Below, in pieces: positions 1 to 53,543 of a stretch of 64,000 bases of DNA. Below the pieces are notes generated by a model. The model ran no database searches. It saw nothing but the letters and a program-made list of their open reading frames with translations, and was not told the DNA's origin. Numbering within the stretch: position 1 is the first letter of the stretch; each line of letters starts with the position of its first letter. The DNA is from Spirochaetia bacterium (lineage in GTDB: Bacteria; Spirochaetota; Spirochaetia; SZUA-6; Bin103): assembly GCA_965203055.1 (NCBI GenBank), contig OZ241863.1, forward strand, positions 2,944,001 through 3,008,000. The letters run 5' to 3'. The position numbers and the translations under genes are program-made.

Positions 1-519
1 GTGCACGGCGGCGAAGCGTCCGCGGTCGAGCGAGCGCAGCAGTTCGACCACGGGCCGCGCCAGCGCCAACACCTGCGGCGCGGCGCGCAGCCGCAGCCGC
101 AGCGCGGCCAGCGCCTGCGCCGGCACGTCGACCGCGAACTGGGGATGTTCGATGCGGCGCACCACCAGCCGGTACGAGCCGGCGTCGGGCGGCAGCGCCG
201 CTCCCGGCGGCACGCGCAAGGCGCGCAGGCCGGCGGTGGCCGGCGCCGGCGCGGCGGCGAGCGGCAGCGGATGCTCGCGCCCGGCGGCGTCGACCAGACG
301 GCTGCCGCGCAAGTCGAAGAACGACTCCCAGCGCCACTCGCGGCCGATGTTGAAGTTGTACTTCGGTTCCAGCAGCAACGGCGGCAGCAGCGCCCGGCGG
401 CCGCAGGCGTGCGCCTCGCGCAGCAGGCAGGCCAGGTTGGATGCCTGGTGGTTGAGGCCCGTCACCACGGCGACCGACCGTTCGTAGCGGAGATAGCGCG
501 GATGCTCGGCGTCCGTCAT
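1..519 (-). CDS. Probable O-fucosyltransferase-like (GT-B) protein, N-terminal part; runs off the window edge
   Basis: Not in the ORF track. Manual translation from ATG at 519 gives MTDAEHPRYLRYERSVAVVTGLNHQASNLACLLREAHACGRRALLPP...LDRGRFAAVH with no stop seen. GLNHQ resembles the N-terminal G(L/F)NNQ motif, and FAAVH resembles the start of the xAVHxRRGD motif of fucosyltransferases. Confidence 0.55.
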   Translation of the reverse strand, partial: MTDAEHPRYLRYERSVAVVTGLNHQASNLACLLREAHACGRRALLPPLLLEPKYNFNIGREWRWESFFDLRGSRLVDAAGREHPLPLAAAPAPATAGLRALRVPPGAALPPDAGSYRLVVRRIEHPQFAVDVPAQALAALRLRLRAAPQVLALARPVVELLRSLDRGRFAAVH

Positions 520-611
520 GGCGAAGTGACTGCCACGGCTCGCGCCGAGTCTGACCGACAACGCGCATCGCTGTCCATCATCCGAGGGCCGGCATCGCCT
601 ATAATCACGGC

Positions 612-2123
612 GTGACTTCCTGCTCGGCAGACGGCGACCGGCGCCTGGAGTGGGCCGCGCTTGCCGCCGTGACGCTGATCGGCTTCGGCCTGCGGTGGTC
701 GTATCTGGGCGACCCGATACGGGTCGACGAGGGGAAGATCGCGGCCTGGGTGCAGTCCTGGACGTTCCGGGAAGTGGCGTCGTTCTACGAAAACATCGGC
801 AACCACATCCTCCATACGCTGCTCGTGGACCTCTGCCACACGCTGTTCGGGCTGCAACCGTGGAGCATTCGCCTGCCGGCTCTGCTGCCGGGCGCCGCCT
901 TGATTCCGGCGACCTACCTGGTCGGCGCGGCGCTGTTCTCCCGGCGGTCGGCGCTGCTGGCCGCCGGGCTGGCGGCGGGCGCTCCGTTCCTGGCGTTGTT
1001 TTCGGTGATCTCGCGCGGCTACGTGCTGCAGAGCGCGCTGCTCATGGCGCTGGCGTGGCTGCTGCTGAGGCTTGCCGAGTCCCGGTGGCGGGGCCTGACG
1101 CTCGCCGCCGGCGTCCTCGCCGCCGGCATCGTCGGAGCGCTCGCCCTCCACACCCTTCCCACCACGTTGTTCGCGCTTCCCGGCCTCTACGCCGGCGCGG
1201 CGCTGCGGACGGCGTGGGTCGCCAAGCCGGCCGCAGCGGCGCGGGGCCGGACCGGCAGCGCGGGCCGGCTGCTGCCGGCGCTGGTGGTCACCGGCGGCCT
1301 GGCGCTGCTCCTCTACCTGCCGGTATTCCTGGGGACCGAGTGGGAACGGATCGCGGCCAACCGGTACACCGCGGCGCAGCCGGCGGCCCTGCTCTGGGAA
1401 CGACTGGTGGACCGTATGGCGGGGACCGCCCGGCACTGGGCCTGGGACCTTCCCGTGCCGGCGCAGGCGCTGTGGGCGCTGGCGGCGGGCGCCGGCCTGC
1501 TGGCCGCGGCGCGCCGGCGGCAGGCCTCGTCGGCGTGGTTCGTGGTGCTCGTGATCACTTCGACCGTGGCCTTCTCGGTGGCGCTGCGGCGGGTGCCGCC
1601 GGTGCGCGGCTACCTGTTTCTCATGCCGTTCTTCCTGCTGCTGCCGGCCGTCGCCATCGACGCCGCGGCGCAGCGCCTGGCGCCGGGGCGCGGGGCGGCG
1701 GCAACGCGCTTCGCCGTCCCGCTGCTGGCGGTGCTGCTGGCCGCCGCCGGCGCGGTCTGGACCTGGTCGGGCGGCTGGCTGGAGGCCGAGCGGGGCCTGC
1801 TCAGGGGGCGTTACGCCGGCGCCGAGAGCGCCATGCGGGCGCTTGCGGCGGTGGTGGGCGAACGGGACGTGGTGGCGCCGCCGGCGTGGCCGTATCGCTA
1901 CTACGCCGCGCTGCACGACCTGCCGATCCGCTTCGCAGCCCCCGAGTCAGGAGACATCGGGGCCGGCGACGTCGACAACGTCTACCTGCTGGTCCTGGAC
2001 GGCGACGAGGTGAGCGGCGCCGTCGAGCGGTACGGACTCCGCGACCGGTTCGGGGAGCCGCGCCCGTTCGGCGTGTTCCCGGATCTTCGGGTCTTCGTCG
2101 TCAGCCGGCAGCGCGGCCGGTAA
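612..2123 (+). CDS. Polytopic membrane glycosyltransferase, ArnT/PMT (GT-C) like
   Basis: 503 aa, many TM segments, DE motif after TM1 (IRVDEG), NHILHTLL and IRLPALL, SRGY. TATAAT at 600-605, 6 nt before the GTG. Confidence 0.7.
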   Translation: MTSCSADGDRRLEWAALAAVTLIGFGLRWSYLGDPIRVDEGKIAAWVQSWTFREVASFYENIGNHILHTLLVDLCHTLFGLQPWSIRLPALLPGAALIPATYLVGAALFSRRSALLAAGLAAGAPFLALFSVISRGYVLQSALLMALAWLLLRLAESRWRGLTLAAGVLAAGIVGALALHTLPTTLFALPGLYAGAALRTAWVAKPAAAARGRTGSAGRLLPALVVTGGLALLLYLPVFLGTEWERIAANRYTAAQPAALLWERLVDRMAGTARHWAWDLPVPAQALWALAAGAGLLAAARRRQASSAWFVVLVITSTVAFSVALRRVPPVRGYLFLMPFFLLLPAVAIDAAAQRLAPGRGAAATRFAVPLLAVLLAAAGAVWTWSGGWLEAERGLLRGRYAGAESAMRALAAVVGERDVVAPPAWPYRYYAALHDLPIRFAAPESGDIGAGDVDNVYLLVLDGDEVSGAVERYGLRDRFGEPRPFGVFPDLRVFVVSRQRGR

Positions 2124-2132
2124 GGCGGCCCC

Positions 2133-3677
2133 CTACGGCGCGCCCGGCGCCGCGCCGGACGCCGACGCGGGGGCCATGCTGCGCACGCTGGCGATGCGCG
2201 CGGGGGGATTCAGGAGCTTCCACAAGACTTCGTTCATAAAGTCCAGCACCTCGGGTTGCACCGTGGTATTGCGCATCGTCGGGTGCAGCCAGTTCATTCG
2301 CGCCGGATCGAAGTCGGCATCGAGGTGACCGCCGGCGACCGCCATGTCGAACAGTTGCGATCCCGGATAGGGGGTGGCGAGTTGCAGGTTGGCGCGGTAC
2401 ATGCCGGCGTCCATGTGGCGCTTCGCCAGCATGATCGTCGCCTTCATTTCGTCCAGCGTTTCGTCCGGCCAGCCGATGATGTAGTTCCCCCCGACCGTTA
2501 TGCCATTGCGCTGAGCGGTCTCGATGATCGAGACGGTATCGGTCTTGTCGAGGTTGATCTTGCCGGTGGCGTACTTGTCGATGATGCGCTGCGAGGCGGA
2601 CTCGAAGGGCAGGGAAATCTCCTTGAATCCGGCGTGCGCCATCACCTCGAACAATTCCTGATCCGCGACCAGCCGGCCGGATTGCGGGCGGCACATGTGG
2701 ACGATGTTGATGCCGTTCAGGTCCTTCAGCTTCAGACCCTTGCCGATGACTCCGCGGATGATCTGCAGCGCCCGCTTCTTCTTGGCGAGCAGGGAATCGT
2801 CCTCGATGAACACGTACTCGACGTCGAGCGATTGCAGGACGTCGAACTCCTCCATGACGCGGGGGATCGACTTCACCCGCAGCTCGCGCAGGTTGCCGGT
2901 GAACGAACCGACGTCTTCCTTGGAGATATGACAAAACGTGCACTTGAACGGACAGCCGCGGGAGGTCATCAAACTGCCGTACCGGATGCGGTCGCTGCCC
3001 TGAATCCCGCCGCCCTTGGGACGCGCGATGTCCCAGTACCTGTCCAGCGGAGCCAGGTCCCACGCCGGGAACGGCAGTTCGTCCAGATCGTGTATCACCG
3101 ACGTCGACGAGGTGCAGCGCATGGTCCCGTCCCGGAGGAACGCCACGCCCGGAACCGCGGAAAAGTCGCGGGAGCCGCGCCGCAACTGCGCGCCGACCGC
3201 CACGATGCCGCATTCCGCTTCCGACAGGAATACCAGGTCGGCCCCGGCCTGCAGAAACCAGTTCGCCATGTGCCGCGCATTGGTGCCGCCGACCATCACC
3301 AGCTTGTCCGGGTAGGCCGCCTTGATGGCGGTCACCGTCTCCGCGGCCGGGGGCGCCTGAGCGGTGTACAGGTTGGTCAATCCGACCACGTCGAAGTCGC
3401 GGACCGCCGCCAGGATCGCCTCCTGCGTCATGCCGATGCGGGCGCGGCCGTCGGGCAACTGCTCGACCCGGTAGAAGGTATCCTCCAGCGGCGCCTCCGG
3501 CGGACCCACGACCGCGTCCAGGAGTTCCACGTCATACCCGCGGGAACGCAACGCGCCCGCGATGTACAGCAGGCCGAGAGAACCGTCCGGCTTGGCGCTG
3601 TCGTCCGGCCAAAAGGCCATGGGCGGATACATCAGGAGAAACCGGGGGGCGATCCGCCTGCCGGTGATCTGTGCCAT
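2133..3677 (-). CDS. Cobalamin-binding radical SAM enzyme (class B methyltransferase-like)
   Basis: N-terminal B12-binding region (SLGLLYIAGALR, VMVGG), TSRGCPFKCTFC CxxxCxxC motif, IEDD, ESASQR, IIGWPDET, TPYPGS. Confidence 0.9.
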   Translation of the reverse strand: MAQITGRRIAPRFLLMYPPMAFWPDDSAKPDGSLGLLYIAGALRSRGYDVELLDAVVGPPEAPLEDTFYRVEQLPDGRARIGMTQEAILAAVRDFDVVGLTNLYTAQAPPAAETVTAIKAAYPDKLVMVGGTNARHMANWFLQAGADLVFLSEAECGIVAVGAQLRRGSRDFSAVPGVAFLRDGTMRCTSSTSVIHDLDELPFPAWDLAPLDRYWDIARPKGGGIQGSDRIRYGSLMTSRGCPFKCTFCHISKEDVGSFTGNLRELRVKSIPRVMEEFDVLQSLDVEYVFIEDDSLLAKKKRALQIIRGVIGKGLKLKDLNGINIVHMCRPQSGRLVADQELFEVMAHAGFKEISLPFESASQRIIDKYATGKINLDKTDTVSIIETAQRNGITVGGNYIIGWPDETLDEMKATIMLAKRHMDAGMYRANLQLATPYPGSQLFDMAVAGGHLDADFDPARMNWLHPTMRNTTVQPEVLDFMNEVLWKLLNPPARIASVRSMAPASASGAAPGAP

Positions 3678-3790: not shown

Positions 3791-5332
3791 TCAGGCGCGG
3801 GCCACCTCGAAGGCGGCGATGTTGCGCGCCTCGCGGCTGAACTCCACGCCGAGCAGGTGGATCGGTTCGCCCAGGGCGCGGTACTTCTCCGCGTAGCCGC
3901 GCGCCTGCAACTGCGCCAGCGCGGCGCCCTCCGGCTCCAGCTCCACCACCTTGAACTCGAACAGATAGACGTTGCCCCGGTACCGCACCGCCAGATCGAC
4001 CCGCCCGCGGCTGCTCGAATCCTCGACCGTGACGTCCAGCCCCACCGCCGCGAACCAGGAATAGCAGACGCTCGCGTAGTAGCCCTCGTAGCGCGCGATG
4101 TCGTTGCGCGTGTGCCACTCGTACGGGATGCCGGCGAAGAACGCCCGGAACAGCGCCTCCAGCCCGGCGAAGTCGTTCGCCGCCAGCAGCCGGCGCAAGC
4201 GTGGGCGGTCCGCGGCCTGACCGGCGGCGCCGAGCGCGCGAAGCAGGCTGCGGTTGAGGCTCTGGCGCACCTCGCGGTTGGGATAGCCGAGCCGGTAGAG
4301 CGCCTCGCCATCGTCGTCTTCGACGTCCCGAATGGTCAGGTAGCCGGTCTGGAACAGCAGCGCCGCTGGCTCCATCTCCTCCACGTCGAACGCGGACAGC
4401 AGCTCGGCGCCGGCCAGCATCCCGTCCAGCTCAGGCGAGACGACCCCGCGCTTGATCAGCGCGTCGATCAGAAACGACGGCGTGCCGGTCTCGAACCAAT
4501 GGGCGGCGAACTCCCGGCGGTCGAACAGCAGCAGGATGTCGAACGGGTTGTAGACCCGATCGTCACCGCGCCAGTTGTAGCCGTTGTACCAATCGCGGAT
4601 CTCCTCCCGGTCCAGGCCCGGCAGCTCCGCCGCGAACACCGTGTCGAGGTCGGCCTCGGTGTAGCCGCAGATCGCCGCATAGCGCGGATCCAGCGTGATG
4701 TCGATCAGGTTGTTGAGGCCGGAGAAGACGCTGACCTTGGAGAACTTGCTCACCCCGGTCAGCAGCGTGAAGCGGATGTGCGCGTCGGCGAACTTCACGT
4801 TCGAGTAGAGGCTGCGCAGCAGCCGGCGGTTGGCGGCCGCGATCGCCGGCGTCCCCAGCGCGTCCAGGATCGGCTTGTCGTACTCGTCGATCAGCACCGC
4901 TACCCGTTTGCCGGCGCTCCGGTGCAAGCCCTCTAGCAGGCGCCGGAAGCGGATCGGCGCGGAGGCGCTGCGCGCGCTCGCGCCGGCGGCCGTCTCGAGC
5001 GCCGTCAACTGATCGGCCAAGTCTTCTTGCAGGCCGTCCGGCGCCGCGTAGTCGCCGCCGCCGAAGTCGAGGCGCACCACCGGGCGGCGCTCCGACCACT
5101 CCCAGTGGTCGTGGACGTGCAGGCCGCGAAACAGTGCCTCGCTGCCCTCGAACAGTTCCTTGATGGTGTCGACCAGCAGGCTCTTGCCGAAGCGCCGCGG
5201 GCGCGACAGGAAGTAGTGCTTTCCCTTCTGCGTCAGGCGGAGGATGAAGGCAGTCTTGTCGACGTAGTAGCAGTCGTCCTCGCGGATCTCGCGGAAGGTC
5301 TGGATGCCGGTCGGCAGCTTCCTCCTCGTCAT
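3791..5332 (-). CDS. AAA-ATPase-like protein with C-terminal PD-(D/E)XK nuclease domain, copy 1
   Basis: YYVDKT, Walker A RPRRFGKS, Walker B LIDEYDKP, YNPF, W..TGTP, C-terminal GRVDL..LFEFK. ATG at 5332; alternative GTG at 5359. Confidence 0.9.
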   Translation of the reverse strand: MTRRKLPTGIQTFREIREDDCYYVDKTAFILRLTQKGKHYFLSRPRRFGKSLLVDTIKELFEGSEALFRGLHVHDHWEWSERRPVVRLDFGGGDYAAPDGLQEDLADQLTALETAAGASARSASAPIRFRRLLEGLHRSAGKRVAVLIDEYDKPILDALGTPAIAAANRRLLRSLYSNVKFADAHIRFTLLTGVSKFSKVSVFSGLNNLIDITLDPRYAAICGYTEADLDTVFAAELPGLDREEIRDWYNGYNWRGDDRVYNPFDILLLFDRREFAAHWFETGTPSFLIDALIKRGVVSPELDGMLAGAELLSAFDVEEMEPAALLFQTGYLTIRDVEDDDGEALYRLGYPNREVRQSLNRSLLRALGAAGQAADRPRLRRLLAANDFAGLEALFRAFFAGIPYEWHTRNDIARYEGYYASVCYSWFAAVGLDVTVEDSSSRGRVDLAVRYRGNVYLFEFKVVELEPEGAALAQLQARGYAEKYRALGEPIHLLGVEFSREARNIAAFEVARA

Positions 5333-5368
5333 GGGCGCGTCTCGATGCGGCGCGGTCACGGTCCGGCC

Positions 5369-5401: not shown

Positions 5402-7792
5402 TCATTCGCCGGAGTCGGCCTCACGGCCCTGCGCCGCGGCCGGCGCCGCAATCTCCGCGCTCCAGAGCCGGCCCTGCCCGCTGATGAACTGGCCGGTGCG
5501 GAGGCCGGCGATCTCATACTCCGGCAACGGCGCCAGCGCCACGCACGCCGCGCCGAACCGCGCCCCGTGTTCGTGGTAGTCGAAGTCCCGGTTCTCGAAG
5601 CCGCGCCGCCGGTCTTGCGGGGACAGGTCGCCGGCGTCCGCCGGAATCACGTGCAGGAAGAACCGCGCCCGCAGGTCCTCCGCCGCGCACGGCTCCTTGT
5701 GATATGCCAGCACCCGCCCGTCGAGGTAGAGGTCGAACGCCGCGCGCGCGGCCGGCGCTCCCCAGGCGCCGGAGCGGATCGCGGCGCGCGCCTCCCAATA
5801 GCGCTGCGCGGCCGGTCCGGCCGCGAACTCGACGCTCCAGAGCTGGGGCCAGCCGCGGGTTTCGAATTGCCCGGTACGGATGCGCGTGAACTCGTAATCG
5901 GGCAGTGTCACGACCGCCACGCAGGCGCCGTCGATCCGCGCGCCGCCCTCCCAGAGATAGAAGTCCCGGTTGTCGAACCCCAGCTCCCGCTGGTGGGCGG
6001 GCAGGTCGGCGGCGTCCGCGGGGAAGAGGTGCAGGAAGAACTTCTTCTCATCCAGGTCTTTCACCGGGCAGTTGTCCTTGACGTAGGTCAGCGTGGCGCC
6101 GTCGAGATACAGGTCGTAGTCCGAGCGGGCGACCGGCTCCCGCGAGCGTGCGGCGCGGTACGCTTCCCGGAAGTCTGCGACGGTCGCAGCGTCGATCTGC
6201 GCCGGGTCGAGGGCGGCCACCGTGAGGATGGTGTTGTGGTAGATGCGGCGCGCATAGACCGCGGGCGAGAACGGGAAGCTGCGGCGGTGATTGGCGCGAG
6301 TATGATTGGTGATGGCGTAGTGATGGTTCGCCGCGGCGTCATGCGCGCGGTCGGTGATGACGACTCTGCGGCGTTCGGTTGCAGGGAGTATGCGCAGATT
6401 GGCGCTGACGAGCGCGTGTCGCCAGTTCTTCGCCGCAACGACGTGGATGGTTTCCTGCGGGTGGCGGCGGAGCAGATGCTCCAGCCCTTCGCGGTAGGCC
6501 GGCCCCCAGTACTCCATCTCGTAGCGGGTACGCAGGTATTCGGGGGTGCGGCGGTCGACCAGGAAGTTGAAGTACACCGTCTGATGGGGGTGGATCAGCG
6601 CCATCTCGACCGCGGCCGCGGCCAAGCCCGCCGCGGCCAGCGCGTAGATGCCGCGCCGGAGCCACGGCCGCCGGCGCGCGGCGGCCAGCAGTCGGCGCAG
6701 GCCGTAGACCGCCAGCAGGGCCAGCGGAGCGGCCAGGAAGTACATCTGCCGCCAGCCGTTGTAGAGGTTGGCGTCGACCGCGATGACGGCCGCGGCCGGC
6801 AGGGCCAGACAGGCGACCAGCAGCGCCCCGAAGCGCGTGACGGGGGTGTTGCGGAGGACCTCGCGCGGGCGCGTCAGGCTGCGCGCGAACACGGCGACGA
6901 TTCCGGCCAGGCTCAGCAGCAGCGCCGCCGGCGGCGTGGTGATCGCCATCCAGGTCGGCAGGTAGTGCGGCGGAACCTCCGGCCAGCGCACCATTTCGCC
7001 TTGAAACAGTGTTGGAATAGGGGAGGGATGGCGCGCGAACGTGACGACGGCGTCGATCAGCTCGAACGGGTCGCGCCAGAGATGGGGGGAGACCGCGTAC
7101 AGGGCCGCCGCCGCGGCCAGCAGGAACGCGCCGGCGGTCGCCAGCGCGCGCCGCCGCTCCGCCGGCCCATGCGCCTGCAGCAGGTCGAGCGCCCGCAGCG
7201 CCGGCACCGCGGCGCACAGCAGCAGGCCCATGATCCGCAGGTTGACCAGCACGCCCACGCCCACCCCGCAGAGCGCGAACGCGCCGGCGGTGTCGCGGCG
7301 GAAGGCGCGCTGCACCAGATAGAGCGCGATCATGAACATGACCAGGAAGGGGATGTCCTTGGTGTTGAAGAAGGAGTGGGCGTACAGGCGGGGCTGCAGC
7401 AGGAACAGCAGCAGGGCGAACAGCGCCAGGCGGCGGTCGCGGAACAGGCGGAAGGTCAGCAGCCAGCAGAAGAAGCCGCCGGTGAGGAAGAACAGGTGGG
7501 TCAGCAGGTGGCGGCTGAGGTAGACGGCGCGGCTGTCGGTGAGGCCGAGCAGCCGTTCGACCAGGATCAGCGGCGCTTCGAACGCGACTCCGTAGTAACG
7601 GTTGTGGTCTGCGGCCAAGGCGCCGGCGTCGCCTTGCGCGTAGGCGACCGCCGCCTGGCCGATGCTGCGCTGGCGGTGCTCATCCCACGATATGCCGTAG
7701 TCGTCGAGGACGGCGGCGCCAATTGCCGTGAACGCGATGAGCGCGATGAACGCGTCGCGCCACGGCAGCCGCCGAGGCGTATCCTGCGGCAA
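5402..7792 (-). CDS. GT-C type membrane glycosyltransferase paralog GT1 with two C-terminal two-Cys domains
   Basis: DDYGISWDE loop, HSFFNTKDIPF, multiple TMs, LYNGWRQMYF, then two FDLYLDG...C...FFLH...GFDN...C...LPDY...RTGQF...LWS domains. Start codon uncertain. Confidence 0.75.
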   Translation of the reverse strand: MPQDTPRRLPWRDAFIALIAFTAIGAAVLDDYGISWDEHRQRSIGQAAVAYAQGDAGALAADHNRYYGVAFEAPLILVERLLGLTDSRAVYLSRHLLTHLFFLTGGFFCWLLTFRLFRDRRLALFALLLFLLQPRLYAHSFFNTKDIPFLVMFMIALYLVQRAFRRDTAGAFALCGVGVGVLVNLRIMGLLLCAAVPALRALDLLQAHGPAERRRALATAGAFLLAAAAALYAVSPHLWRDPFELIDAVVTFARHPSPIPTLFQGEMVRWPEVPPHYLPTWMAITTPPAALLLSLAGIVAVFARSLTRPREVLRNTPVTRFGALLVACLALPAAAVIAVDANLYNGWRQMYFLAAPLALLAVYGLRRLLAAARRRPWLRRGIYALAAAGLAAAAVEMALIHPHQTVYFNFLVDRRTPEYLRTRYEMEYWGPAYREGLEHLLRRHPQETIHVVAAKNWRHALVSANLRILPATERRRVVITDRAHDAAANHHYAITNHTRANHRRSFPFSPAVYARRIYHNTILTVAALDPAQIDAATVADFREAYRAARSREPVARSDYDLYLDGATLTYVKDNCPVKDLDEKKFFLHLFPADAADLPAHQRELGFDNRDFYLWEGGARIDGACVAVVTLPDYEFTRIRTGQFETRGWPQLWSVEFAAGPAAQRYWEARAAIRSGAWGAPAARAAFDLYLDGRVLAYHKEPCAAEDLRARFFLHVIPADAGDLSPQDRRRGFENRDFDYHEHGARFGAACVALAPLPEYEIAGLRTGQFISGQGRLWSAEIAAPAAAQGREADSGE

Positions 7793-44319: not shown

Positions 44320-44459
44320 CCTACTCGGCATTTTCATTTGCTGTTGCTGCTGCATTTTGCTTGCTTTGCCGCACGTAAACCTTCCTCGAACATGGGCACG
44401 TCACTTTGTCACTTTGGTGGGGGCTGACCGCCCGTTCGGCTGCACGCCGGCGGGCGCCA

Positions 44460-44741: not shown

Positions 44742-44777
44742 GGGCGCGTCTCGGTGCGGCGCGGTCACTGTGCGGCC

Positions 44778-44806
44778 ATGATAGCCGAACGGCGCGCGGC
44801 TATCAT
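44778..44806. repeat. Intergenic palindrome copy (ATGATA-N17-TATCAT)
   Basis: atgatagccg-aacggcgcg-cggctatcat. Confidence 0.9.
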
Positions 44807-44823
44807 CCGCTCATCCGCCGGCC

Positions 44824-44940
44824 TCACGGCCCCTGCGCCGCGGCCGGCGCCTTGATCTCCGCGCTCCAGAGCTGGCCCTCCCCGCTGATGAACTGGCCGG
44901 TGCGGAGGCCGGCGATCGCGTATTCCGGCAACGGCGCCAG
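44824..44940 (-). pseudogene. Orphan 3' end of the shared two-Cys domain
   Basis: Encodes LAPLPEYAIAGLRTGQFISGEGQLWSAEIKAPAAAQGP*. Confidence 0.85.
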
Positions 44941-45003
44941 CCTCATGGTTTCCTGACCGCCGCGCAGCGCCGTCGAACGGCACGCCGGCGCTGGGGCGGG
45001 GCG

Positions 45004-46613: not shown

Positions 46614-48947
46614 TCATTCGCCGGAGTCGGCCTCACGGCCCTGCGCCGCGGCCGGCGCCGCAATCTCCGCGCTCCAGAGCTGGCCTTCGCCGCTGATGAA
46701 CTGGCCGGTGCGGAGGCCGGCGATCTCATACTTCGGCAACGGCGCCAGCGCCACGCACGCCGCGCCGAACAGCGCCCCGTGTTCCCGGTAGTCGAAGTCC
46801 CGGTTCTCGAAGCCGCGCAGCCGGTCTTGCGGGGACAGAGCCCCGGCGTCCGCGGGAATCACGTGCAGGAAGAACCGCGCCCGCAGGTCCTCCGCCGCGC
46901 ACGGCTCCTTGTGATACGCCAGCACCGTTCCGTTCAGATAGAGGTCGAACGCTCCGCGCGCGGCCGGCGCTCCCCAGGCGCCGGAGCGGATCGCGGCGCT
47001 CGCATCCCGATAGCGCTGCGCGGTCGGTCCGGCCGCGAACTCGACGCTCCACAGTTGGGGCCAGCCGCGGGTTTCGAACTGCCCGGTACGGATGCGCGTG
47101 AACTCGTAATCGGGCAGTGCCACGACCGCCACGCAGGCGCCGTCGATCCGCGCGCCGCCCTCCCAGAGATAGAAGTCCCAGTTGTCGAACCCCGACTCCC
47201 GCTGGTGGGCGGGCAGGTCGGCGGCATCCGCGGGGAAGACGTGCAGGGAGAACTTCTTCTCATCCAGGTCCTCCACCGGGCAGCTATCCTTGACATAGGT
47301 CAGCGTGGTGCCGTCGAGATACAGGTCGTAGTCCGAACTGGCGACCGGCTCCCGCGACCGTGCGGAGCGGTACGCTTCCCGGAAGTCGGCCACGGTCGCA
47401 GCGTCGAGCTGCGCCGGGTCGAGGGCGGCCACCGTGAGGATGGTGTTGTGGTAGATGCGGCGCGCATAGACCGCGGGCGAGAACGGGAAGCTGCGGCGGT
47501 GATTGGCACGAGTATGATTGGTGATGGCGTAGTGATGGGTCGCCGCGGCGTCATGCGCGCGGTCGGAGATGACGATTCTGCGGCGCTCGGCCGCCGGGAG
47601 TATGCGCAGATTGGCGCTGACGAGCGCGTATCTCCAGTTCTTCGCCGCAACGACGTGGACCGTTTCCTGCGGGTGGCGGCGGAGCAGATGCTCCAGCCCC
47701 TCGCGGTAGGCCGGCCCCCAGTACTCCATCTCGTAGCGGGTGCGCAGGTATTCGGGGGTGCGGCGGTCGACCAGGAAGTTGAAGTAGACCATCTGATGGG
47801 GATGGATCAGCGCCATCTCGACCGCGGCCGCGGCCAAGCCCGCCGCGGCCAGCGCGTAGATGCCGCGCCGGAGCCACCGCCGCCCGCCCCGCGGCGGCAG
47901 CAGCCGGCGCAGGCCGTAGACCGCCAGCAGGGCCAGCGGCGCGGCCAGGAAGTACATCTGCCGCCAGCCGTTGTAGAGATTGGCGTCGACCGCGATGACG
48001 GCCGCGACCGGCAGCGCCAGGCAGGCGACCAGCAGCGCCCCGAAGCGCGTGACGGGGGTGTTGCGGAGGACCTCGCGCGGGCGCGTCAGGCTGCGCGCGA
48101 ACACGGCGACGATTCCGGCCAGGCTCAGCAGCAGCGCCGCCGGCGGCGTGGTGATCGCCATCCAGGTCGGCAGGTAGTGCGGCGGAACCTCCGGCCAGCG
48201 CACCATTTCGCCTTGAAACAGTGTTGGAATAGGGGAGGGATGGCGCGCGAACGTGACGACGGCGTCGATCAGCTCAAACGGGTCGCGCCAGAGATGGGGC
48301 GAGACCGCGTACAGGGCCGCCGCCGCGGCCAGCAGGAACGCCCCGGCGGTCGCCAGCGCGCGCCTCCGCTCCGCCGGCCCATGCGCCTGCAGCAGGTCGA
48401 GCGCCCGCAGCGCCGGCACCGCGGCGCACAGCAGCAGGCCCATGACGCGCAGGTTGACCAGCACGCCCACGCCCAGCCCGCAGAGCGCGAACGCCCCGGC
48501 GGTGTCGCGGCGGAAGGCGCGCTGCACCAAGTAGAGCGCGATCATGAACATCGCCAGGAAGGGGATGTCCTTGGTGTTGAAGAAGGAGTGGGCGTACAGG
48601 CGGGGCTGCAGCAGGAACAGCAGCAGGGCGAACAGCGCCAGCCGGCGGTCGCGGAACAGGCGGAAGGCGAGCAGCCAGCAGAAGAAGCCGCCGGTGAGGA
48701 AGAACAGGTGGGTCAGCAGGTGGCGGCTGAGGTAGACGGCGCGGCTGTCGGTGAGGCCGAGCAGCCGTTCGACCAGGATCAGCGGCGCCTCGAACGCGAC
48801 TCCGTAGTACCGGTTGTGGTCGGTCGGCAGGGCGCCGGCGTCGCCCAGCGCGTAGGCGATCCGCGTCTGGCCGATGCGGCGCTGGTGGTGCTCATCCCAC
48901 GATATGCCGTAGTCGTCGAGCACGGCGGCGCCCAGCGCCGCGAACAC
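46614..48947 (-). CDS. GT-C type membrane glycosyltransferase paralog GT7 (near-duplicate of GT1)
   Basis: Homology (PWRDALIAL) extends to 48977 but there is no in-frame start before TM1; 5' end abuts the 8-bp repeat tract. Confidence 0.75.
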   Translation of the reverse strand: MFAALGAAVLDDYGISWDEHHQRRIGQTRIAYALGDAGALPTDHNRYYGVAFEAPLILVERLLGLTDSRAVYLSRHLLTHLFFLTGGFFCWLLAFRLFRDRRLALFALLLFLLQPRLYAHSFFNTKDIPFLAMFMIALYLVQRAFRRDTAGAFALCGLGVGVLVNLRVMGLLLCAAVPALRALDLLQAHGPAERRRALATAGAFLLAAAAALYAVSPHLWRDPFELIDAVVTFARHPSPIPTLFQGEMVRWPEVPPHYLPTWMAITTPPAALLLSLAGIVAVFARSLTRPREVLRNTPVTRFGALLVACLALPVAAVIAVDANLYNGWRQMYFLAAPLALLAVYGLRRLLPPRGGRRWLRRGIYALAAAGLAAAAVEMALIHPHQMVYFNFLVDRRTPEYLRTRYEMEYWGPAYREGLEHLLRRHPQETVHVVAAKNWRYALVSANLRILPAAERRRIVISDRAHDAAATHHYAITNHTRANHRRSFPFSPAVYARRIYHNTILTVAALDPAQLDAATVADFREAYRSARSREPVASSDYDLYLDGTTLTYVKDSCPVEDLDEKKFSLHVFPADAADLPAHQRESGFDNWDFYLWEGGARIDGACVAVVALPDYEFTRIRTGQFETRGWPQLWSVEFAAGPTAQRYRDASAAIRSGAWGAPAARGAFDLYLNGTVLAYHKEPCAAEDLRARFFLHVIPADAGALSPQDRLRGFENRDFDYREHGALFGAACVALAPLPKYEIAGLRTGQFISGEGQLWSAEIAAPAAAQGREADSGE

Positions 48948-48980
48948 CGCCAGCGCGATGAGCGCGTCACGCCACGGCGT

Positions 48981-49139
48981 GTTCGGCGGTTCGGCGGTTC
49001 GGCGGTTCGGCGGTTCGGCGGTTCGGCGGTTCGGCGGTTCGGCGGTTCGGCGGTTCGGCGGTTCGGCGGTTCGGCGGTTCGGCGGTTCGGCGGTTCGGCG
49101 GTTCGGCGGTTCGGCGGTTCGGCGGTTCGGCGGTTCGGC
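48981..49139. repeat. Simple sequence repeat (GGTTCGGC), 19 full units plus one 7-bp partial
   Basis: 159 bp, counted directly. Confidence 0.97.
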
Positions 49140-49311
49140 ACAGGATGCCTCGTATTGCCATAAGGTGTCAACCTACTCGGCATTTTCATTTGCTTTTGCT
49201 GCTGCATTTTGCTGCTTGCCTTGCCGCACGTAACCTCTTCCTCGAACACCGGCGGTTGCCTTGAACTGCTCTACTTTGCCGTCACCCGGTGGGGACTGGC
49301 CGCTCGTTCGG

Positions 49312-51246
49312 CTACTCGCCGGCCGGCACCGCAATCTCCGCGCTCCAGAGCCGCCCTCCGCCGGCGCTGAACTGGCCGGTCCGGACGTGGGAGATCTCAT
49401 ACTCCGGGAGGGTCGCGGCCACCAGGCAGGCGCCGTCCCAGAACACGCCGCGCGGCCGTTCATCGAAATGAAAGTCGAGATTGTCGAATCCCTGCTCGCG
49501 GCTGCCGGAGGGCAGATCGTCTACGGCGATCGGAACGACGTGCAGAAAGAAGCGCGCCCGGACATCCCGCGGCGCGCAGGGTTCCTTCACGTATACCAGC
49601 CGGTCCCCTGCCCGATACACGTCGAACGCCCCGCCGGCGGCGAGCTGCCGGCCGTCCAGGGCCGCCGCCAGCTCTTCGAACCGCGCCCGTTCCTTGGCCA
49701 GGTAGTAGTCCTTCTCGAACGTCGCGGCGCGCGCGTGCGCGGGCGCCGCCGCCGGCGGCCGCAGCATGGTTTCGCCCATGATCGCCCCGATGCCGCCGTA
49801 GGCTCGATAGCGCGTCGGCAAGGGCCGATCCGCATGCAATGGCAGGTTATCGCCTCGGAACACTTCGTTGCCGGCGGCGTCCACCTCCACGATCGTGTCA
49901 TGGAAGCTGATCAGGGTATTGCCGCTGCGCAGCCGGTACGCGCTGCCCTTGCCCCTCGTGTAGATGTCCGGCGTCGGCCGGTATTCCCACACTTTCACCG
50001 CAGTGCCGGCCGCCTCGTCCAGCCGCAGCTCCAGCGCGCGCGAGTAGGCGCCGCCCTCCGAATCGGGCCGCCCCCAGCCGTTGTCGAACAGCAGAACGTT
50101 GCCGTTGCCGAGCTGCGCCGCCGTGTGCTGCCCGTAGAACCGGTCGTTCGGGTCCGGGAACCGGTAATCGCTGTCCGGCCCGTGCAGTTGCCACTCGATC
50201 GCCCGCAAGTCGGCGCTGAGCGAGACCACCTGATTGCGCACGCGGGACGACAGGATGACGTTGCCGCGCGGACCGACGCTCACCGAGTTGAGGCCCGTCC
50301 ACTGGAAGACGGCGTTGTTTGATCTCGTTCTCGTATCGCGCAGTGCCGGGTCCAGCAGGTCCCAGGCGTCCTTCGAGTCCCAGACCTGCTCGAAGTGTCC
50401 GCTTTCCCGGTCATAGACGCGCAGATTGTCGACCCCGAACGCAGCTTCCGCCGGCCCGCCGTTCGCCGAGTCGTCGAAGACGACGGACTTCCGGGTCAGG
50501 TAGATCACCCGGCCATCGGCGAGCACGGTGAGCTCATGGTGGGGATGCCCCGCGGGGCCGTCCCGCTCGAACCGGTTGACCATTGCTCCCAATGGGGTGA
50601 TCTCGACCATGCTGTGATATACGAAGAGCAAGTTGCCGTCGGAAAGCTGCGCGATGGGGCCGCCGAACCCCCCTTCATGTTCATGGTACCAGACTATTCC
50701 ACCCACCTCGTCCCAGAAGACGTAGTACCCGCGCGGGTAGTCGGACAGGATGAGCGGCTGCGAGCTCCTGCCGCGCACCTGCAACGGAATGGCGGCGAGG
50801 GGCAGCGGCAGCGGTCCGGTGGTGAACCGGCCGTCCGGCCCGGCGGCCGCATCCGCATCCGCGCCGTCCAGCGCGGCCTCGTCCGTCACGGAGCCGTTCA
50901 CCACGAAGATGGTGTAGTCGTAGGTCGTCTCCGGGCGCAGCCTGACGACCGGGATGGCGTGCGCCGCGCCGGGTTCGCTCAGCGGCGTGCGGTAGCGGCC
51001 GGCCTGCGGGTTGTCGTACTCGACGAACACCCGCGCGGCGCGGGCCAGCGCCACCCGCACCTCGACGATCAGCGCGTTGCGCTCGCTGAACGAGGCGTCG
51101 TGCCGCAGGACGGCGGGCGCGTCCGCGGACGCCGGCGCCGCGCCGAACACGATAAACGCAGCCGCCAGCGCCGGCACCAGGCTAGACCGACCATACGGCG
51201 GTCGACGATCTAGCGTCACGCCGGGCGCCGTCAAGATCGATTTCAT
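49312..51246 (-). CDS. Secreted arylsulfotransferase paralog 5
   Basis: ASST motifs but WTGLNSV instead of WTHLNSV. Upstream TTGTCC-N18-TAGAAT. Confidence 0.8.
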   Translation of the reverse strand: MKSILTAPGVTLDRRPPYGRSSLVPALAAAFIVFGAAPASADAPAVLRHDASFSERNALIVEVRVALARAARVFVEYDNPQAGRYRTPLSEPGAAHAIPVVRLRPETTYDYTIFVVNGSVTDEAALDGADADAAAGPDGRFTTGPLPLPLAAIPLQVRGRSSQPLILSDYPRGYYVFWDEVGGIVWYHEHEGGFGGPIAQLSDGNLLFVYHSMVEITPLGAMVNRFERDGPAGHPHHELTVLADGRVIYLTRKSVVFDDSANGGPAEAAFGVDNLRVYDRESGHFEQVWDSKDAWDLLDPALRDTRTRSNNAVFQWTGLNSVSVGPRGNVILSSRVRNQVVSLSADLRAIEWQLHGPDSDYRFPDPNDRFYGQHTAAQLGNGNVLLFDNGWGRPDSEGGAYSRALELRLDEAAGTAVKVWEYRPTPDIYTRGKGSAYRLRSGNTLISFHDTIVEVDAAGNEVFRGDNLPLHADRPLPTRYRAYGGIGAIMGETMLRPPAAAPAHARAATFEKDYYLAKERARFEELAAALDGRQLAAGGAFDVYRAGDRLVYVKEPCAPRDVRARFFLHVVPIAVDDLPSGSREQGFDNLDFHFDERPRGVFWDGACLVAATLPEYEISHVRTGQFSAGGGRLWSAEIAVPAGE

Positions 51247-51362: not shown

Positions 51363-52910
51363 TCAGGCGCGGGCCACCTCGAAGGCGGCGATGGTGCGCG
51401 TCGCGCGGCTGAACTCCACGCCGAGCAGGTGGATCGGTTCGCCCAGGCCGCGGTACTTCTCCGCGTAGCCGCGCGCCCGCAACTGCGCCAGCGCCGCCCC
51501 GTCGGGCTCCAGCTCCACCACCTTGAACTCGAACAGATAGACGTTGCCCCGGTACCGCACCGCCAGATCGACCCGCCCGCGGCTGCTCGAATCCTCCACC
51601 GTGACGTCCAGCCCCACCGCCGCGAACCAGGAGTAGCAGACGCTCGCGTAGTAGCCCTCGTAGCGCGCGATGTCGTTGCGCGTGTGCCACTCATACGGGA
51701 TGCCGGCGAAGAACGCCCGGAACAGCCGCTCCAGTCCGGCGAAGTCGTTCGCCGCCAGCAGCCGCTCCAACGCCGTGTCCTGCGCCAGCCGGCGCGCTGC
51801 TGCGGGCGCCAGCGCCCGCAGCAGGCGTTCGTTCAGAGCGAGCCGCACTTCGCGGTTGGGGTAGCCGAGCCGGTAGCGCGGTCCGCGCGCCGAGTGCTCG
51901 ACGCTGCGGATGGTCAGATAGCCGGTCTGGAACAGCAGCGCCTCGGGCTCCATCTCGTCCACGTCGAACGCGGACAGCAGCTCGCCGCCGGCCAACATGC
52001 CGTCCAGCTCGGGCGATGCGACGCCGCGCTTGATCAGGATGTCGATCAGAAACGACGGCGTACCGGTCTCGAACCAATGGGCGGCGAATTCCCGGCGGTC
52101 GAACAGCAGCAGGATGTCGAACGGGTTGTAGACCCGATCGTCACCGCGCCAGTTGTAGCCGTTGTACCAATCGCGGATCTCCTCCCGGTCCAGCCCCGGC
52201 AACTCCGCCGCGAACACCGTGTCGAGGTCGGCCTCGGTGTAGCCGCAGATCGCCGCATAGCGCGGATCCAGCGTGATGTCGATCAGATTGTTGAGGCCGG
52301 AGAAGACGCTGACCTTGGAGAACTTGCTCACCCCGGTCAGCAGCGTGAAGTGGATGTGGGCGTCGGCGAACTTCACGTTCGAGTACAGGCTGCGCAGCAG
52401 GCGGCGGTTGGCGGCCGCGATCGCCGGCGTCCCCAGCGCGTCCAGGATCGGCTTGTCGTACTCGTCGATCAGCACCGCTACCCGCCGGCCGGCGCTCCGG
52501 TGCAACTCCTCCAGCAGGCGCCGGAAGCGGATCGGCGCGGAGGCGCTGCGCGCGCTCGCGCCGGCGGCCGTCTCGAGCGCCGTCAACTGGTCGGCCAAGT
52601 CTTCTTGCAGGCCGTCCGGCGCCGCGTAGTCGCCGCCGCCGAAGTCGAGGCGAACCACCGGGCGGCGTTTCGACCACTCCCAGTGGTCGTGCACGTGCAG
52701 GCCGCGGAACAGATCCTCGCTGCCCTCGAACAGTTCCTTGATGGTGTCGACCAGCAGGCTCTTGCCGAAGCGGCGCGGGCGCGACAGGAAGTAGTGCGTG
52801 CCTCCCCGTACCAGGCTGAGGATGAAGGCGGTCTTGTCGACGTAGTAGCAGTCATCCTTGCGGAGCTTGCGGAAGGTCTGGATGCCGGTCGGCAGCTTCC
52901 TCCTCATCAT
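51363..52910 (-). CDS. AAA-ATPase/PD-(D/E)XK copy 6
   Basis: Full-length, MMRRKLP start, all motifs. Confidence 0.9.
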   Translation of the reverse strand: MMRRKLPTGIQTFRKLRKDDCYYVDKTAFILSLVRGGTHYFLSRPRRFGKSLLVDTIKELFEGSEDLFRGLHVHDHWEWSKRRPVVRLDFGGGDYAAPDGLQEDLADQLTALETAAGASARSASAPIRFRRLLEELHRSAGRRVAVLIDEYDKPILDALGTPAIAAANRRLLRSLYSNVKFADAHIHFTLLTGVSKFSKVSVFSGLNNLIDITLDPRYAAICGYTEADLDTVFAAELPGLDREEIRDWYNGYNWRGDDRVYNPFDILLLFDRREFAAHWFETGTPSFLIDILIKRGVASPELDGMLAGGELLSAFDVDEMEPEALLFQTGYLTIRSVEHSARGPRYRLGYPNREVRLALNERLLRALAPAAARRLAQDTALERLLAANDFAGLERLFRAFFAGIPYEWHTRNDIARYEGYYASVCYSWFAAVGLDVTVEDSSSRGRVDLAVRYRGNVYLFEFKVVELEPDGAALAQLRARGYAEKYRGLGEPIHLLGVEFSRATRTIAAFEVARA

Positions 52911-52946
52911 GGGCGCGTCTTGGTGCGGCGCGGTCACGGCCCGGCC

Positions 52947-52976
52947 ATGATAGACTGAACGCCGCGCGGCTATCAT
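52947..52976. repeat. Intergenic palindrome copy (ATGATA-N18-TATCAT)
   Basis: atgatagac...ggctatcat followed by ccgctcatccgcc. Confidence 0.85.
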
Positions 52977-52995
52977 CCGCTCATCCGCCCGGCTT

Positions 52996-53543
52996 TCATG
53001 GCCCCTGCGCCGCGGCCGGCGCCGCAAGCTCCGCGCTCCAGAGCTGGCCTTGGCCGCTGATGAACTGGCCGGTGCGGAGGCGGGCGATCCCATACTCCGG
53101 CAACGGCGCCAGCGCCACGCACGCCGCGCCGAGCCGCGCCCCGTGTTCCCGGTAGTCGAAGTCCCGGTTCTCGAAGCCGTGCGGCCGGTCTTGCGGGGAG
53201 AGGTCGCCGGCGTCCGCCGGAATCACGTGCAGGAAGAACCGCGCCCGCAGGTCCTCCGCCGCGCACGGCTCCTTGTGATATGCCAGCGCCGTTCCGTTCA
53301 GATAGAGGTCGAACGCTCCGCGCGCGGCCGGCGCTCCCCAGGTACCGGAGCGGATAGCGGCGCGCGCCTCCCGATAGCGCTGCGCGGTCGGTCCGGCCGC
53401 GAACTCCATGCTCCACAGTTGGGACCGGCCCCGCGCAGCGAGTTGCCCGGTACGGATGCGCGTGAATTCGTAGTCGGGCAGTGCCACGACCGCCACGCAG
53501 GCGCCGTCGAGCCGCATGCCGCCCTCCCAGAGGTAGAAGTCCA
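52996..53543 (-). pseudogene. 5'-truncated glycosyltransferase remnant (1.5 two-Cys domains)
   Basis: Begins abruptly at DFYLWEGG; homology stops at 53543. Confidence 0.85.

Follow-up and report, generated by a model that had tools for sequence, protein, structure and literature searches.

A putative phase-variable glycan-tailoring array in a sponge-associated spirochaete: glycosyltransferases and arylsulfotransferases that share an unnamed C-terminal domain

The stretch of DNA analysed here, called the window, comprises 64,000 nucleotides of a spirochaete genome (positions 2,944,001 to 3,008,000 of contig OZ241863.1, assembly GCA_965203055.1). Between 612 and 53545 it carries an array in which seven paralogous GT-C glycosyltransferase genes and five arylsulfotransferase (ASST) genes all end in the same domain, which we call the C-terminal domain (CTD). 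This domain is a large unnamed family which couples two enzyme classes, and it is the first of several new findings. With moderate confidence we read the region as part of a horizontally exchanged island encoding a phase-variable array for extracytoplasmic glycan tailoring, the chemistry of which is predicted. The genome is a single contig of 4.56 Mb, the G+C content of the window is 70%, and the public runs which contain window DNA, originating from six studies, are labelled sponge or marine metagenome.

Coding frames were chosen by third-position G+C, and the 40 open reading frames (ORFs) were then compared with Pfam. PMT_2 is matched by eight of them, seven paralogues of 711-835 amino acids (aa) and one distinct GT-C of 503 aa; the paralogues are all on the minus strand (5405-7792, 9661-12165, 23353-25731, 34983-37115, 37308-39677, 41777-44104 and 46617-48947). 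Arylsulfotrans is found in five ORFs, AAA-ATPase_like together with PDDEXK_9 (DUF1703) in six, Uma2 and Calx-beta in two each, and GT2, Wzy_C, B12-binding/Radical_SAM, PIN and OMPdecase in one each. The three ORFs with lipoboxes are the two Calx-beta proteins and one repeat protein. An earlier account made without database searches (the sequence-only reading) had described recurring modules of seven GT-C, five ASST, at least six AAA/PD-(D/E)XK and two Uma2 genes, with a GT2, a ligase-like gene (Wzy_C), a B12 radical SAM gene and three lipoproteins embedded among them, and all of this is borne out by the Pfam comparison and the lipoboxes. The fucosyltransferase-like gene which it also listed has to be dropped, no such family being found in any of the 40 ORFs at E <= 0.001. 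NCBIfam gave no match for the GT-C, ASST, DUF1703, Uma2 or Wzy_C proteins of the window. All features are collected in Table 1.

The CTD was first noticed in a comparison of the window with itself (self-BLASTN), as a segment of about 330 bp, about 70% identical, at the 3' ends of both GT-C and ASST genes. It is a two-cysteine beta-sandwich of about 110 aa which ends all seven GT-Cs, in one or two copies, and all five ASSTs, in one copy; the window holds 19 copies. In an alignment of 99 diverse sequences one cysteine (C28) is invariant and the other (C76) is present in at least 90%, which suggests a disulfide and an extracytoplasmic location. The structure model, also a beta-sandwich, has a predicted local distance difference test (pLDDT) score of 94.2. 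No known family was recovered: among 99 members nothing significant was found in Pfam (the best, chance-level match is Subtilosin_A, 0.00086, in 4 of the 99), the profile matches no PDB sequence, and the ESM Atlas gave nothing significant (top score 0.86). When the profile was run against 1.84 billion cluster representatives, 2387 passed E <= 0.001, and a single protein can carry as many as 10 copies. The carriers in the annotated collection are PMT/PMT_2 proteins, with PF05935 in 5 of the 120 listed, and none of the 120 is named. Further carriers in the spirochaete genome resemble the array family in the CTD only, and one of them resembles divergent ArnT/PMT_2 by language-model features.

As read from the sequences, the common CTD links GT-C and ASST physically, a tie that is stronger than co-location alone. 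According to the abstract and section 10 of PMC11127046, the GT136 enzyme ORF12 carries a C-terminal Ig-like carbohydrate-binding module (CBM) which binds the acceptor O-polysaccharide, and comparable modules are known from Emb and AftD. By this analogy, binding of the acceptor is the most likely role of the CTD, and its presence on the ASSTs would then suggest that sulfation is aimed at the same polymer. When residues 530-796 of a GT-C, its C-terminal domains, were modelled together with the CTD region of an ASST, the predicted complex scored 0.02 against a mark of 0.32, which is uninformative either way. A role as a tag for sorting or secretion, like the T9SS-CTD, was discarded, because the domain is present in 1-10 tandem copies, belongs to integral membrane proteins and is found in MAGs (metagenome-assembled genomes) labelled as many different phyla. 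Two other places in the genome carry the domain: a third cluster of CTD genes at 183-196 kb (L065) has divergent N-terminal parts and encloses a flippase-like gene (189514-190392), and the CTD gene at 4311927-4313903 (L069) begins with a C14 tract.

All seven GT-C paralogues score above the Pfam cut-off for PMT_2. One of them, G5405, was modelled with AlphaFold2 (pLDDT 91.1), and a Foldseek search with this model gave 27 matches at E <= 0.001. The best is ArnT (5f15, E 1.3e-05), followed by STT3/AglB/PglB, AftA, ALG9 and Pmt4; all are GT-C enzymes except one beta-sandwich receptor chain, which aligned to the C-terminal domains. The N-terminal part shows the multi-span membrane fold of this class. 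Among 79 sequences D146 never varies, and D30 and D31, which belong to the LDDYG motif following helix 1, are conserved in at least 90%; these are acidic residues in the first extracytoplasmic loop, as expected of a GT-C enzyme, their loop position being taken from the secondary-structure string of the model and not from its coordinates. Neither the single sequence nor the family profile has a match among PDB sequences. The structure search thus confirms the GT-C assignment made from the sequence, and we conclude, as far as the model tells, that the seven paralogues have the GT-C fold.

The ASSTs were proposed to be of the AssT type, and this holds. All five copies match the beta-propeller profile PF05935 with 85.9-115.7 bits (cut-off 24.2), and the PDB sequence matches are 9kf4/9kf6 (8e-14 and 9.7e-14) and 3elq (2.8e-09). 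In the E. coli enzyme (EcAST) the sulfohistidine site is His436, and His356, Asn358 and Arg374 bind the sulfuryl group, as stated in a passage of PMC13426309. Aligned to 3elq, the equivalents of His436 (H376), Asn358 (N322) and Arg374 (R337) are present in five of five copies and that of His356 (H320) in four of five, in a comparison which covered these four positions. The copy at 49312-51246 has Gly where the other four and E. coli AssT have His; it may be inactive or altered. Signal-like hydrophobic N-termini ending in ASA|D were recognized by eye in four of the five, the N-terminus of the 25798 copy being weak. The partner genes dsbL/dsbI are absent beside the ASSTs.

The GT2 is the sole copy in the genome (tblastn). 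In NCBIfam it matches PgfS (2.7e-81, 273 bits, equivalog cut-off 500) and ArnC (5.4e-46, 157 bits), both below the cut-off, so that membership is given at the family level only; the designation GtrB-like survives in the sense that the protein is closest to polyprenyl-phosphate sugar synthases. With such a GT2 in the array and beside related arrays, the donor of the GT-Cs would by analogy be a polyprenyl-phosphate-linked sugar. No flippase candidate was found among the window ORFs, and MprF-type flippase-like genes (PF03706) are located only at 189514-190392 and 1419664-1420599 of the genome. In two gammaproteobacterial loci and one Arenicellales locus a homologous GT2 is directly followed by an LPG_synthase_TM flippase-like gene and CTD proteins.

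Two of the window GT-C genes, G41777 and G46617, contain perfect 8-nt tracts in their 5' coding region, (GAACCGCC)n, with 22 and about 20.5 copies, respectively (Tandem Repeats Finder). On the 5' side of each tract is an AT-rich leader that contains an ATG, and on the other side the conserved PWRD which precedes the first helix of the GT-C; the leader protein starts MQQQ.QMKMPSRLTPYGNTRHP, and a stretch of 39 nt in the leader is identical in both window copies. The genome has four octamer tracts of at least five copies, three of which precede GT-C genes, the third (28 copies) being in a second array described below. The fourth, GCTCAACC in 15 copies at 1804096-1804215 of the genome, is outside the arrays. 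The unit length is not a multiple of three and the tract is inside the coding region, as in contingency loci. The leader ATG is out of frame for G41777 and G46617 and in frame for the copy in the second array. G46617 has no other usable start in the window genome, and its orthologue in the genome of a sister genus (G412) is in frame; in the G412 orthologue of G41777 the tract is 11 rather than 22 copies long. Both tract length and frame thus vary between genomes, as in a contingency locus.

Relatives have homopolymer tracts at corresponding places instead. Two nearly identical arrays (genomes G411 and G413) differ by G41 versus G21 in a GT-C gene and by G18 versus G20 in an ASST gene, and within each pair only one of the two frames is unbroken. 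Tracts of C25-C28 are found at the 5' ends of a GT-C gene in a gammaproteobacterial MAG, an ASST gene in a Dehalococcoidia MAG and a GT2 gene in an Arenicellales MAG. In the loci L005, L006, L011 and L013 of Binatia MAGs nearly every GT-C has a G9 run about 517 nt after the start, and a few copies have G13-G15 at the same site, some of them where no intact gene was called. Translation of some of the array genes appears to be switched on and off by slippage of such repeats, and such switching may take place inside populations. The variation by repeat slippage which had been suggested is thus plausible for two window genes.

The repetition in the window is far above chance: self-BLASTN gave 210 non-self high-scoring segment pairs. 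A GT-C + DUF1703 unit (3757-7766) is repeated at 44970-48978 with 95.1% identity over 4011 bp, and pairwise identities are 80-86% for GT-C, 75.5-84.5% for ASST and 85.6-96.4% for DUF1703. An inverted duplication (19799-21265 versus 30962-29479, 85%) encloses the Wzy_C, GT-C, ASST and repeat lipoprotein genes. The duplicated piece includes the first codons of the Wzy_C gene (MPNPRRLERA), which recur upstream of the lipoprotein gene. Inversion of the segment bracketed by the Calx-beta genes is conceivable; its orientation in G412 is unchanged. The fusion scars described earlier are found again as the deletion which removed the middle part of a DUF1703 gene (breakpoint 8660; Pfam, self-BLASTN), the remnant at 44455-44964, the fragment at 52996-53545, the hybrid CTD of GT-C 34983 and the start of ASST 39798, of which the first codons and the upstream sequence derive from a DUF1703 gene.

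The mosaic alleles are likewise real, since in the 5' halves of the GT-C genes the closest partner paralogue shifts along the gene at 92-99% nucleotide identity. Variable columns make up 5-20% at residues 81-240 and 75-80% at residues 441-680, which correspond to the periplasmic domain and the first CTD. Between paralogues the synonymous divergence (dS) amounts to 0.19 for the membrane core and to 0.45-0.50 for the periplasmic domain with the first CTD, and dN/dS (nonsynonymous over synonymous divergence) is about 0.55-0.6 throughout. The pattern fits gene conversion of the core together with a long-standing divergence on the acceptor side, and not rapid shuffling.

A second array of the same composition is located at 2782-2816 kb of the genome on the opposite strand. 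To describe relatives we surveyed one genome per species, which gave 59 loci, labelled according to the record titles of the MAGs. In 39 of the 59 the GT-C core is matched two or more times in tandem; as many as eight matches lie within 22 kb, and 1-5 CTDs follow each match. The labels of GT-C+CTD loci are Spirochaetia, Dehalococcoidia, Binatia, Vicinamibacterales, Gammaproteobacteria, Pseudomonadales, Arenicellales, Caldilineaceae, Tepidiformaceae and Longimicrobiales, and the GT-C family is also found in MAGs labelled Chloroflexota; the taxa named in the GT-C+CTD record titles are typical sponge-associated groups. A homologous GT2 lies beside the GT-C+CTD genes in five of the 59 loci. The CTD profile has no match in 400 other Spirochaetota genomes (153 genera), and among 30 closer relatives it is found in five, one of ten in the same genus and four of eight in the sister genus.

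The comparison on which island transfer is based involves four metagenome-assembled chromosomes, the window genome (G000), G411, G412 and G413. G411 belongs to the same genus as the window genome (ClpB 89% and NqrB 95% protein identity) and G412 to the sister genus (73% and 70%). At least 94 kb of G412 (4014217-4108423), spanning the second array, the window array and about 20 kb of left flank, is 95-99% identical in DNA to the window genome, and the two arrays are contiguous there. The synonymous divergence of the 12 GT-C/ASST orthologue pairs is 0.005-0.09. A second cross-genus pair, G411 and G413, has a different version of the array in common at 99-99.9% identity. Given this DNA identity of 95-99% beside the low protein identity of ClpB (73%) and NqrB (70%), the simplest reading is a recent transfer of the whole island between genera, with the reservation that all of these chromosomes were assembled from metagenomes. 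Additional patches of 89-97% DNA identity are seen outside the arrays (G000 3041813-3059696 versus G412 4116191-4126293), and more than one island may be shared.

The backbone of the array is collinear with that of G412. Found only in the window array are the deleted DUF1703 gene and pyrF; where the window has a PIN gene, between a GT-C and an ASST and with an upstream antitoxin ORF that is ribbon-helix-helix-like, G412 carries a DUF1703 gene; one Uma2 gene is relocated, one ASST between two GT-Cs is absent here, and the GT-C 34983 has a hybrid CTD. The order of cassettes, described as variable, is so within the array, but between genomes it is largely kept in G412, the one close relative compared. 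None of the 12 GT-C and ASST genes is disrupted in either genome, and dN/dS is 0.18-0.53 in 11 of them and 1.34 in one which has only 14 substitutions; because of the intact frames and the low ratios in 11, the genes are, judged on these grounds, functional. The pyrF protein of the window is 93% identical to a PyrF encoded at another locus of G412, the gene being absent at the array position there. One genome of the same genus has a relative of only 33% identity, and in a second this query finds no match; it looks like a native gene has been replaced by a foreign copy.

The following mechanism is proposed. The single GT2 would load a sugar on polyprenyl phosphate at the cytoplasmic face, and a flippase encoded elsewhere would carry the lipid-linked sugar outward. 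In the periplasm each of the seven ArnT/PMT-like GT-Cs would put this sugar on a different acceptor site, and the five secreted ASSTs, which do not depend on 3'-phosphoadenosine 5'-phosphosulfate (PAPS), would add sulfate from aryl sulfates to the same target. The common CTD would direct both enzyme classes to the target, like the carbohydrate-binding modules at other GT-C C-termini. Acceptor choice is presumably determined by the variable periplasmic domain and the first CTD, the membrane core being homogenised. The octamer tracts would switch two of the seven window GT-C genes, and the third tract a GT-C of the second array, by slippage, and the DUF1703, Uma2 and PIN genes would be passengers which supply substrates for recombination. 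Of the combinatorial assembly line for sugar and sulfate in the sequence-only reading, the gene families, the GT-C fold and the link between GT-C and ASST, now through the CTD, are kept, and free shuffling and the passengers as working parts are given up.

Several observations weigh against this reading. ASSTs are known for phenolic donors and acceptors and only some for sulfation of sugars, according to a passage in PMC13426309, and sulfation of a glycan is assumed here. An ASST is found together with GT-C in only 7 of the 59 loci (five spirochaete, one Dehalococcoidia and one weak match), so that the activities are separable; the co-occurrence which had been expected elsewhere does exist, as a lineage-specific addition. 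The binding role of the CTD is drawn from analogy; Foldseek with the CTD model against the PDB gave no match at E <= 0.001, and VIA-align found only generic resemblances to FN3, Ig and CBM folds, the highest Z scores being 7.4 (FN3) and 6.9 (CBM9). GtrA (PF04138) has no match genome-wide, in addition to the flippase-free window. The crude dN/dS of 0.55-0.60 in the variable region is not above 1, and diversifying selection is thus not supported. With respect to switching, G41777 has a TTG directly before the PWRD and first helix which is a possible alternative start, homopolymer lengths in long-read assemblies, such as G18 versus G20, may err by one or two bases, and the frame differences are between assemblies and not within one population. 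It should also be noted that MAGs may contain local misassemblies.

A different acceptor is possible, although we hold it to be clearly less probable than a glycan: the GT-Cs could O-glycosylate Ser/Thr and the ASSTs sulfate Tyr on repeat or Calx-beta lipoproteins, which the CTD would recognize. In NCBIfam the GT2 comes closest to PgfS of Streptococcus protein glycosylation, Pfam places the GT-Cs in PMT/PMT_2, phenols are the classic ASST acceptors, and the array includes a repeat lipoprotein rich in Ser/Thr/Tyr motifs of the GSGYTSAP type as well as the two Calx-beta lipoproteins, with more lipoprotein genes in the flanks. The tie between lipoproteins and enzymes is, however, one of adjacency; the repeat-lipoprotein family was not seen in the examined GT-C+CTD loci of many phyla, Wzy_C in the array points to a polysaccharide, and the closest structural match of the GT-C is ArnT and not Pmt. 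Somewhat more doubtful still is that the two enzyme classes are unlinked, so that the GT-Cs modify lipopolysaccharide or an envelope lipid, the ASSTs process host phenolic sulfates for detoxification or as a sulfur source, the island makes them neighbours and the CTD is a generic module for anchoring or folding. This would agree with the 52 of 59 related GT-C loci without an ASST, with CTD-bearing ASSTs outside the arrays (e.g. 1273729-1275669 of the genome) and with the small aromatic compounds on which characterised ASSTs mostly act. Yet the CTD is fused essentially to two classes only, GT-C subfamilies and ASST; genes of the two classes follow one another in alternation on a single strand, separated by short gaps, both genomes retain the orthologues, and a GT-C embedded in the membrane needs no anchoring module.

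We regard it as very improbable that the array results from collapsed or chimerically joined repeats in the assembly. The paralogues are 80-96% identical, the genome is metagenome-assembled and public contigs contain alternative joints, such as 9735 joined to 7846 in run X5; but this joint is the G412 arrangement without pyrF, and G412, assembled independently, is collinear over the array at 95-99% with local indels only and has the same 12 GT-C and ASST ORFs intact. Public contigs of other studies bridge the pyrF/GT-C junction (X1, X14) and the GT-C/PIN/ASST junctions (X1, X5, X14, X16), although over 7600-13200 they are short unitigs which show only that some junctions exist elsewhere. The remaining alternative, which we consider unlikely, makes the DUF1703, Uma2 and PIN genes integral, as recombination machinery for shuffling cassettes or as a defence module co-regulated with surface variation. 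Both DUF1703 domains (PF09820 + PF08011) are present in five of the six window copies, the sixth being the internally deleted one. Ten of the 17 close DUF1703 copies in the genome are within the two arrays, always on the GT-C/ASST strand; the genes are intact with dN/dS 0.10-0.34, the PD-(D/E)XK and Uma2 folds are those of nucleases, and PF09820 is among the defence-system domains in a list in PMC10952713. On the other hand, outside the closest relative the GT-C arrays are without close DUF1703 copies, which were seen in 3 of 59 loci and there in a single genome; a PADLOC search recognized none of DUF1703, PIN, GT-C and ASST and gave a weak candidate match for Uma2 alone; and an insect symbiont without such an array has 25 DUF1703 paralogues according to a passage in PMC6387759. 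Because these genes account for most of the gene-content differences between the two genomes and are absent from the GT-C arrays of other phyla, they are probably passengers outside the pathway, and not the assembly-line parts that the AAA/PD-(D/E)XK and Uma2 genes had been taken for.

Table 1. Features of the array, in window coordinates with strand
Feature	Position	Strand	Evidence and remarks
Distinct PMT_2-type GT-C, 503 aa, without CTD, left array edge	612..2123	+	PMT_2 9e-07; 95% aa identity to the G412 protein at the same position
B12-binding radical SAM enzyme (class B)	2133..3677	-	Pfam B12-binding 4.9e-15, Radical_SAM 3.6e-14; NCBIfam sub-threshold only
DUF1703 gene, probably passenger	3791..5359	-	Pfam 7.5e-59 and 4.4e-19; part of the duplicated 4-kb unit with the adjacent GT-C
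GT-C G5405, 2 CTDs, modelled protein	5402..7792	-	Pfam, AlphaFold2 model, Foldseek
DUF1703 gene, internally deleted	7869..8810	-	ATPase-domain profile positions 1-50 only, and PDDEXK_9; breakpoint 8660
pyrF (OMP decarboxylase)	8851..9591	-	Pfam OMPdecase 1.1e-33
GT-C G9661, 2 CTDs	9658..12165	-	Pfam
PIN toxin (12266-12712) and tail of upstream antitoxin-like ORF	12266..12960	-	Pfam PIN 1.6e-08
ASST, 1 CTD	13050..14942	-	Pfam; likely start MSLILGL... at 14942
ASST, 1 CTD	14960..16942	-	Pfam Arylsulfotrans 3.1e-33; PDB sequence matches 9kf6, 3elq
Uma2 gene, ORF start probably over-extended	16973..18232	-	Pfam 1.9e-08; genomic copies elsewhere 86-90% aa identity
DUF1703 gene	18045..19670	-	Pfam
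Calx-beta lipoprotein, inverted-duplication arm	19817..21160	+	Pfam Calx-beta 3.7e-10; lipobox LAGC
Wzy_C membrane protein (O-antigen ligase/polymerase-like), 718 aa	21232..23388	+	Pfam Wzy_C 1.7e-10
GT-C G23353, 2 CTDs	23350..25731	-	Pfam
ASST, 1 CTD	25795..27714	-	Pfam, alignment
Repeat lipoprotein	27854..29512	-	No Pfam family; lipobox LTAC; GSGYTSAP-type repeats; many genome-wide copies; true start probably inside ORF
Calx-beta lipoprotein, second inverted-duplication arm	29566..30945	-	Pfam
GT2, polyprenyl-phosphate sugar synthase-like (PgfS/ArnC/GtrB type)	31125..32141	+	Glycos_transf_2 6.1e-32
Uma2 gene	32191..33411	-	Pfam; position differs in G412
DUF1703 gene	33350..34897	-	Pfam
GT-C, single hybrid CTD (start CTD1-like, end CTD2-like)	34980..37115	-	G412 orthologue has two CTDs
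GT-C G37308, 2 CTDs	37305..39677	-	Pfam
ASST, 1 CTD, start region copied from DUF1703 5' end	39795..41693	-	Pfam, alignment
GT-C G41777, 2 CTDs	41774..44104	-	Pfam
Octanucleotide tract (44110-44287) and AT-rich leader, ATG at 44355	44110..44355	-	Leader ATG out of frame with G41777
Junction remnant, GT-C 3' end / DUF1703 5' end	44455..44964	-	5053-5537 versus 44455-44941 at 87.7% (self-BLASTN); partial CTD 44830-44964
DUF1703 gene	45004..46545	-	Pfam
GT-C G46617, 2 CTDs	46614..48990	-	Pfam; without usable in-frame start in this assembly
Octanucleotide tract (48975-49139) and leader, ATG at 49207	48975..49207	-	Leader ATG out of frame here, G412 orthologue in frame
ASST, 1 CTD	49312..51246	-	Gly at EcAST His356 position
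DUF1703 gene	51363..53093	-	Pfam
GT-C C-terminal fragment (CTD2 and half CTD1), right array edge, adjoining clpB	52996..53545	-	High G412 identity stops near 53264

The right neighbours of the array are ordinary housekeeping genes, clpB, a hexapeptide transferase gene, a PfkB kinase gene and nqr genes. To the left of the first GT-C there is a small ORF of 111 aa (152-484) with a third-position G+C of 0.95 and no family match. A tRNA-Arg(gcg) of 92 nt reported by ARAGORN at 16509-16600 was considered as integration site of the island and rejected; it lies inside an intact ASST ORF and is probably a false positive.

How sponge symbionts escape digestion and how the host discriminates among them is an open question; surface glycans are suspected, and concrete gene systems are scarce. 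The locus offers several handles, namely an unannotated domain family with 2387 representatives, two coupled enzyme classes, arrays which are found in MAGs labelled as many phyla yet in none of 400 other spirochaete genomes, and a cross-genus transfer of at least 94 kb. The repeat tracts would make surface decoration stochastic, a strategy of pathogens which is hardly described in environmental mutualists. The natural substrates of PAPS-independent sulfotransferases are largely unknown, and the locus points toward modification of the envelope, which would extend their known biology. Sponge self-recognition uses sulfated, Calx-beta-associated aggregation-factor glycans. It is a tentative thought, to which we give rather little weight, that sponge symbionts of many phyla share a phase-variable code of sugar and sulfate through horizontal transfer, in which the CTD tethers GT-Cs and ASSTs to one surface polymer, the switching of single paralogues gives each cell a sulfated pattern of its own, and this pattern, resembling the aggregation-factor glycans, decides whether the cell is tolerated or eaten. 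If this were true, the fact that array type follows the cross-genus genome pairs rather than phylogeny would reflect host selection. Host mimicry or phage evasion as the purpose of the array, which had been suggested from the sequence, is speculation.

In the open-access full text we found no paper on this combination of genes; these Pfam families might still appear in the supplementary tables of papers on sponge metagenomes. The array is related to several known systems. Gtr systems use one synthase in common for GT-Cs that differ in acceptor specificity. The GtrA/GtrB/GtrC glucosylation of O-antigen in Salmonella and Shigella and the GT136 system of Citrobacter youngae, the latter as given in the abstract and section 10 of PMC11127046, are like the array in having a polyprenyl-phosphate sugar synthase and an extracytoplasmic GT-C. 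The acceptor-binding module of ORF12 is Ig-like, whereas the CTD is another, unnamed sequence family with one or two copies per protein here and up to 10 elsewhere. The array furthermore combines one GT2 with seven GT-C paralogues, the locus is without GtrA or a MATE flippase, and the sulfotransferases carry the same module. The aminoarabinose pathway of lipid A (ArnC/ArnT) shares with it the best structural match, ArnT 5f15, and the ArnC match of the GT2. The array GT-C is, however, only 16% identical to ArnT with no match of its family profile among PDB sequences, it has extra periplasmic domains, and no other arn genes accompany it. The family is also present in MAGs labelled Dehalococcoidia and Chloroflexota, groups which to our knowledge lack lipid A.

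The Pgf system of Streptococcus mutans (PgfS, PgfM1, PgfE, PgfM2) pairs a GT2 with GT-C-type membrane enzymes, and PgfS is the best NCBIfam match of the array GT2; the score of 273 bits is below the 500-bit equivalog cut-off and a PgfE-like epimerase is absent from the window. With E. coli AssT and other PAPS-independent aryl sulfotransferases (3elq, 9kf4/9kf6) the ASSTs share PF05935, the catalytic His and three further active-site residues. The signal-like N-termini, recognized by eye in four of five, would fit an export like that of AssT. The ASSTs of the array differ by the additional CTD, the lack of dsbL/dsbI, the occurrence as five paralogues in a tandem array and the one copy without the His356 equivalent. 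Phase-variable genes for surface glycosyltransferases are known in Haemophilus, Neisseria, Campylobacter and Helicobacter, and the tracts resemble these: they are simple-sequence repeats within the 5' part of the coding sequence, their unit length is no multiple of three, and the frame differs between strains. Here the bacterium is an uncultured sponge-associated spirochaete, the targets are GT-C genes and in relatives also ASST and GT2 genes, and the frame states are known between assemblies. Compared with all of these, the array probably represents a multi-paralogue, probably phase-variable and horizontally traded form of periplasmic glycan tailoring, coupled to ASSTs through a new domain.

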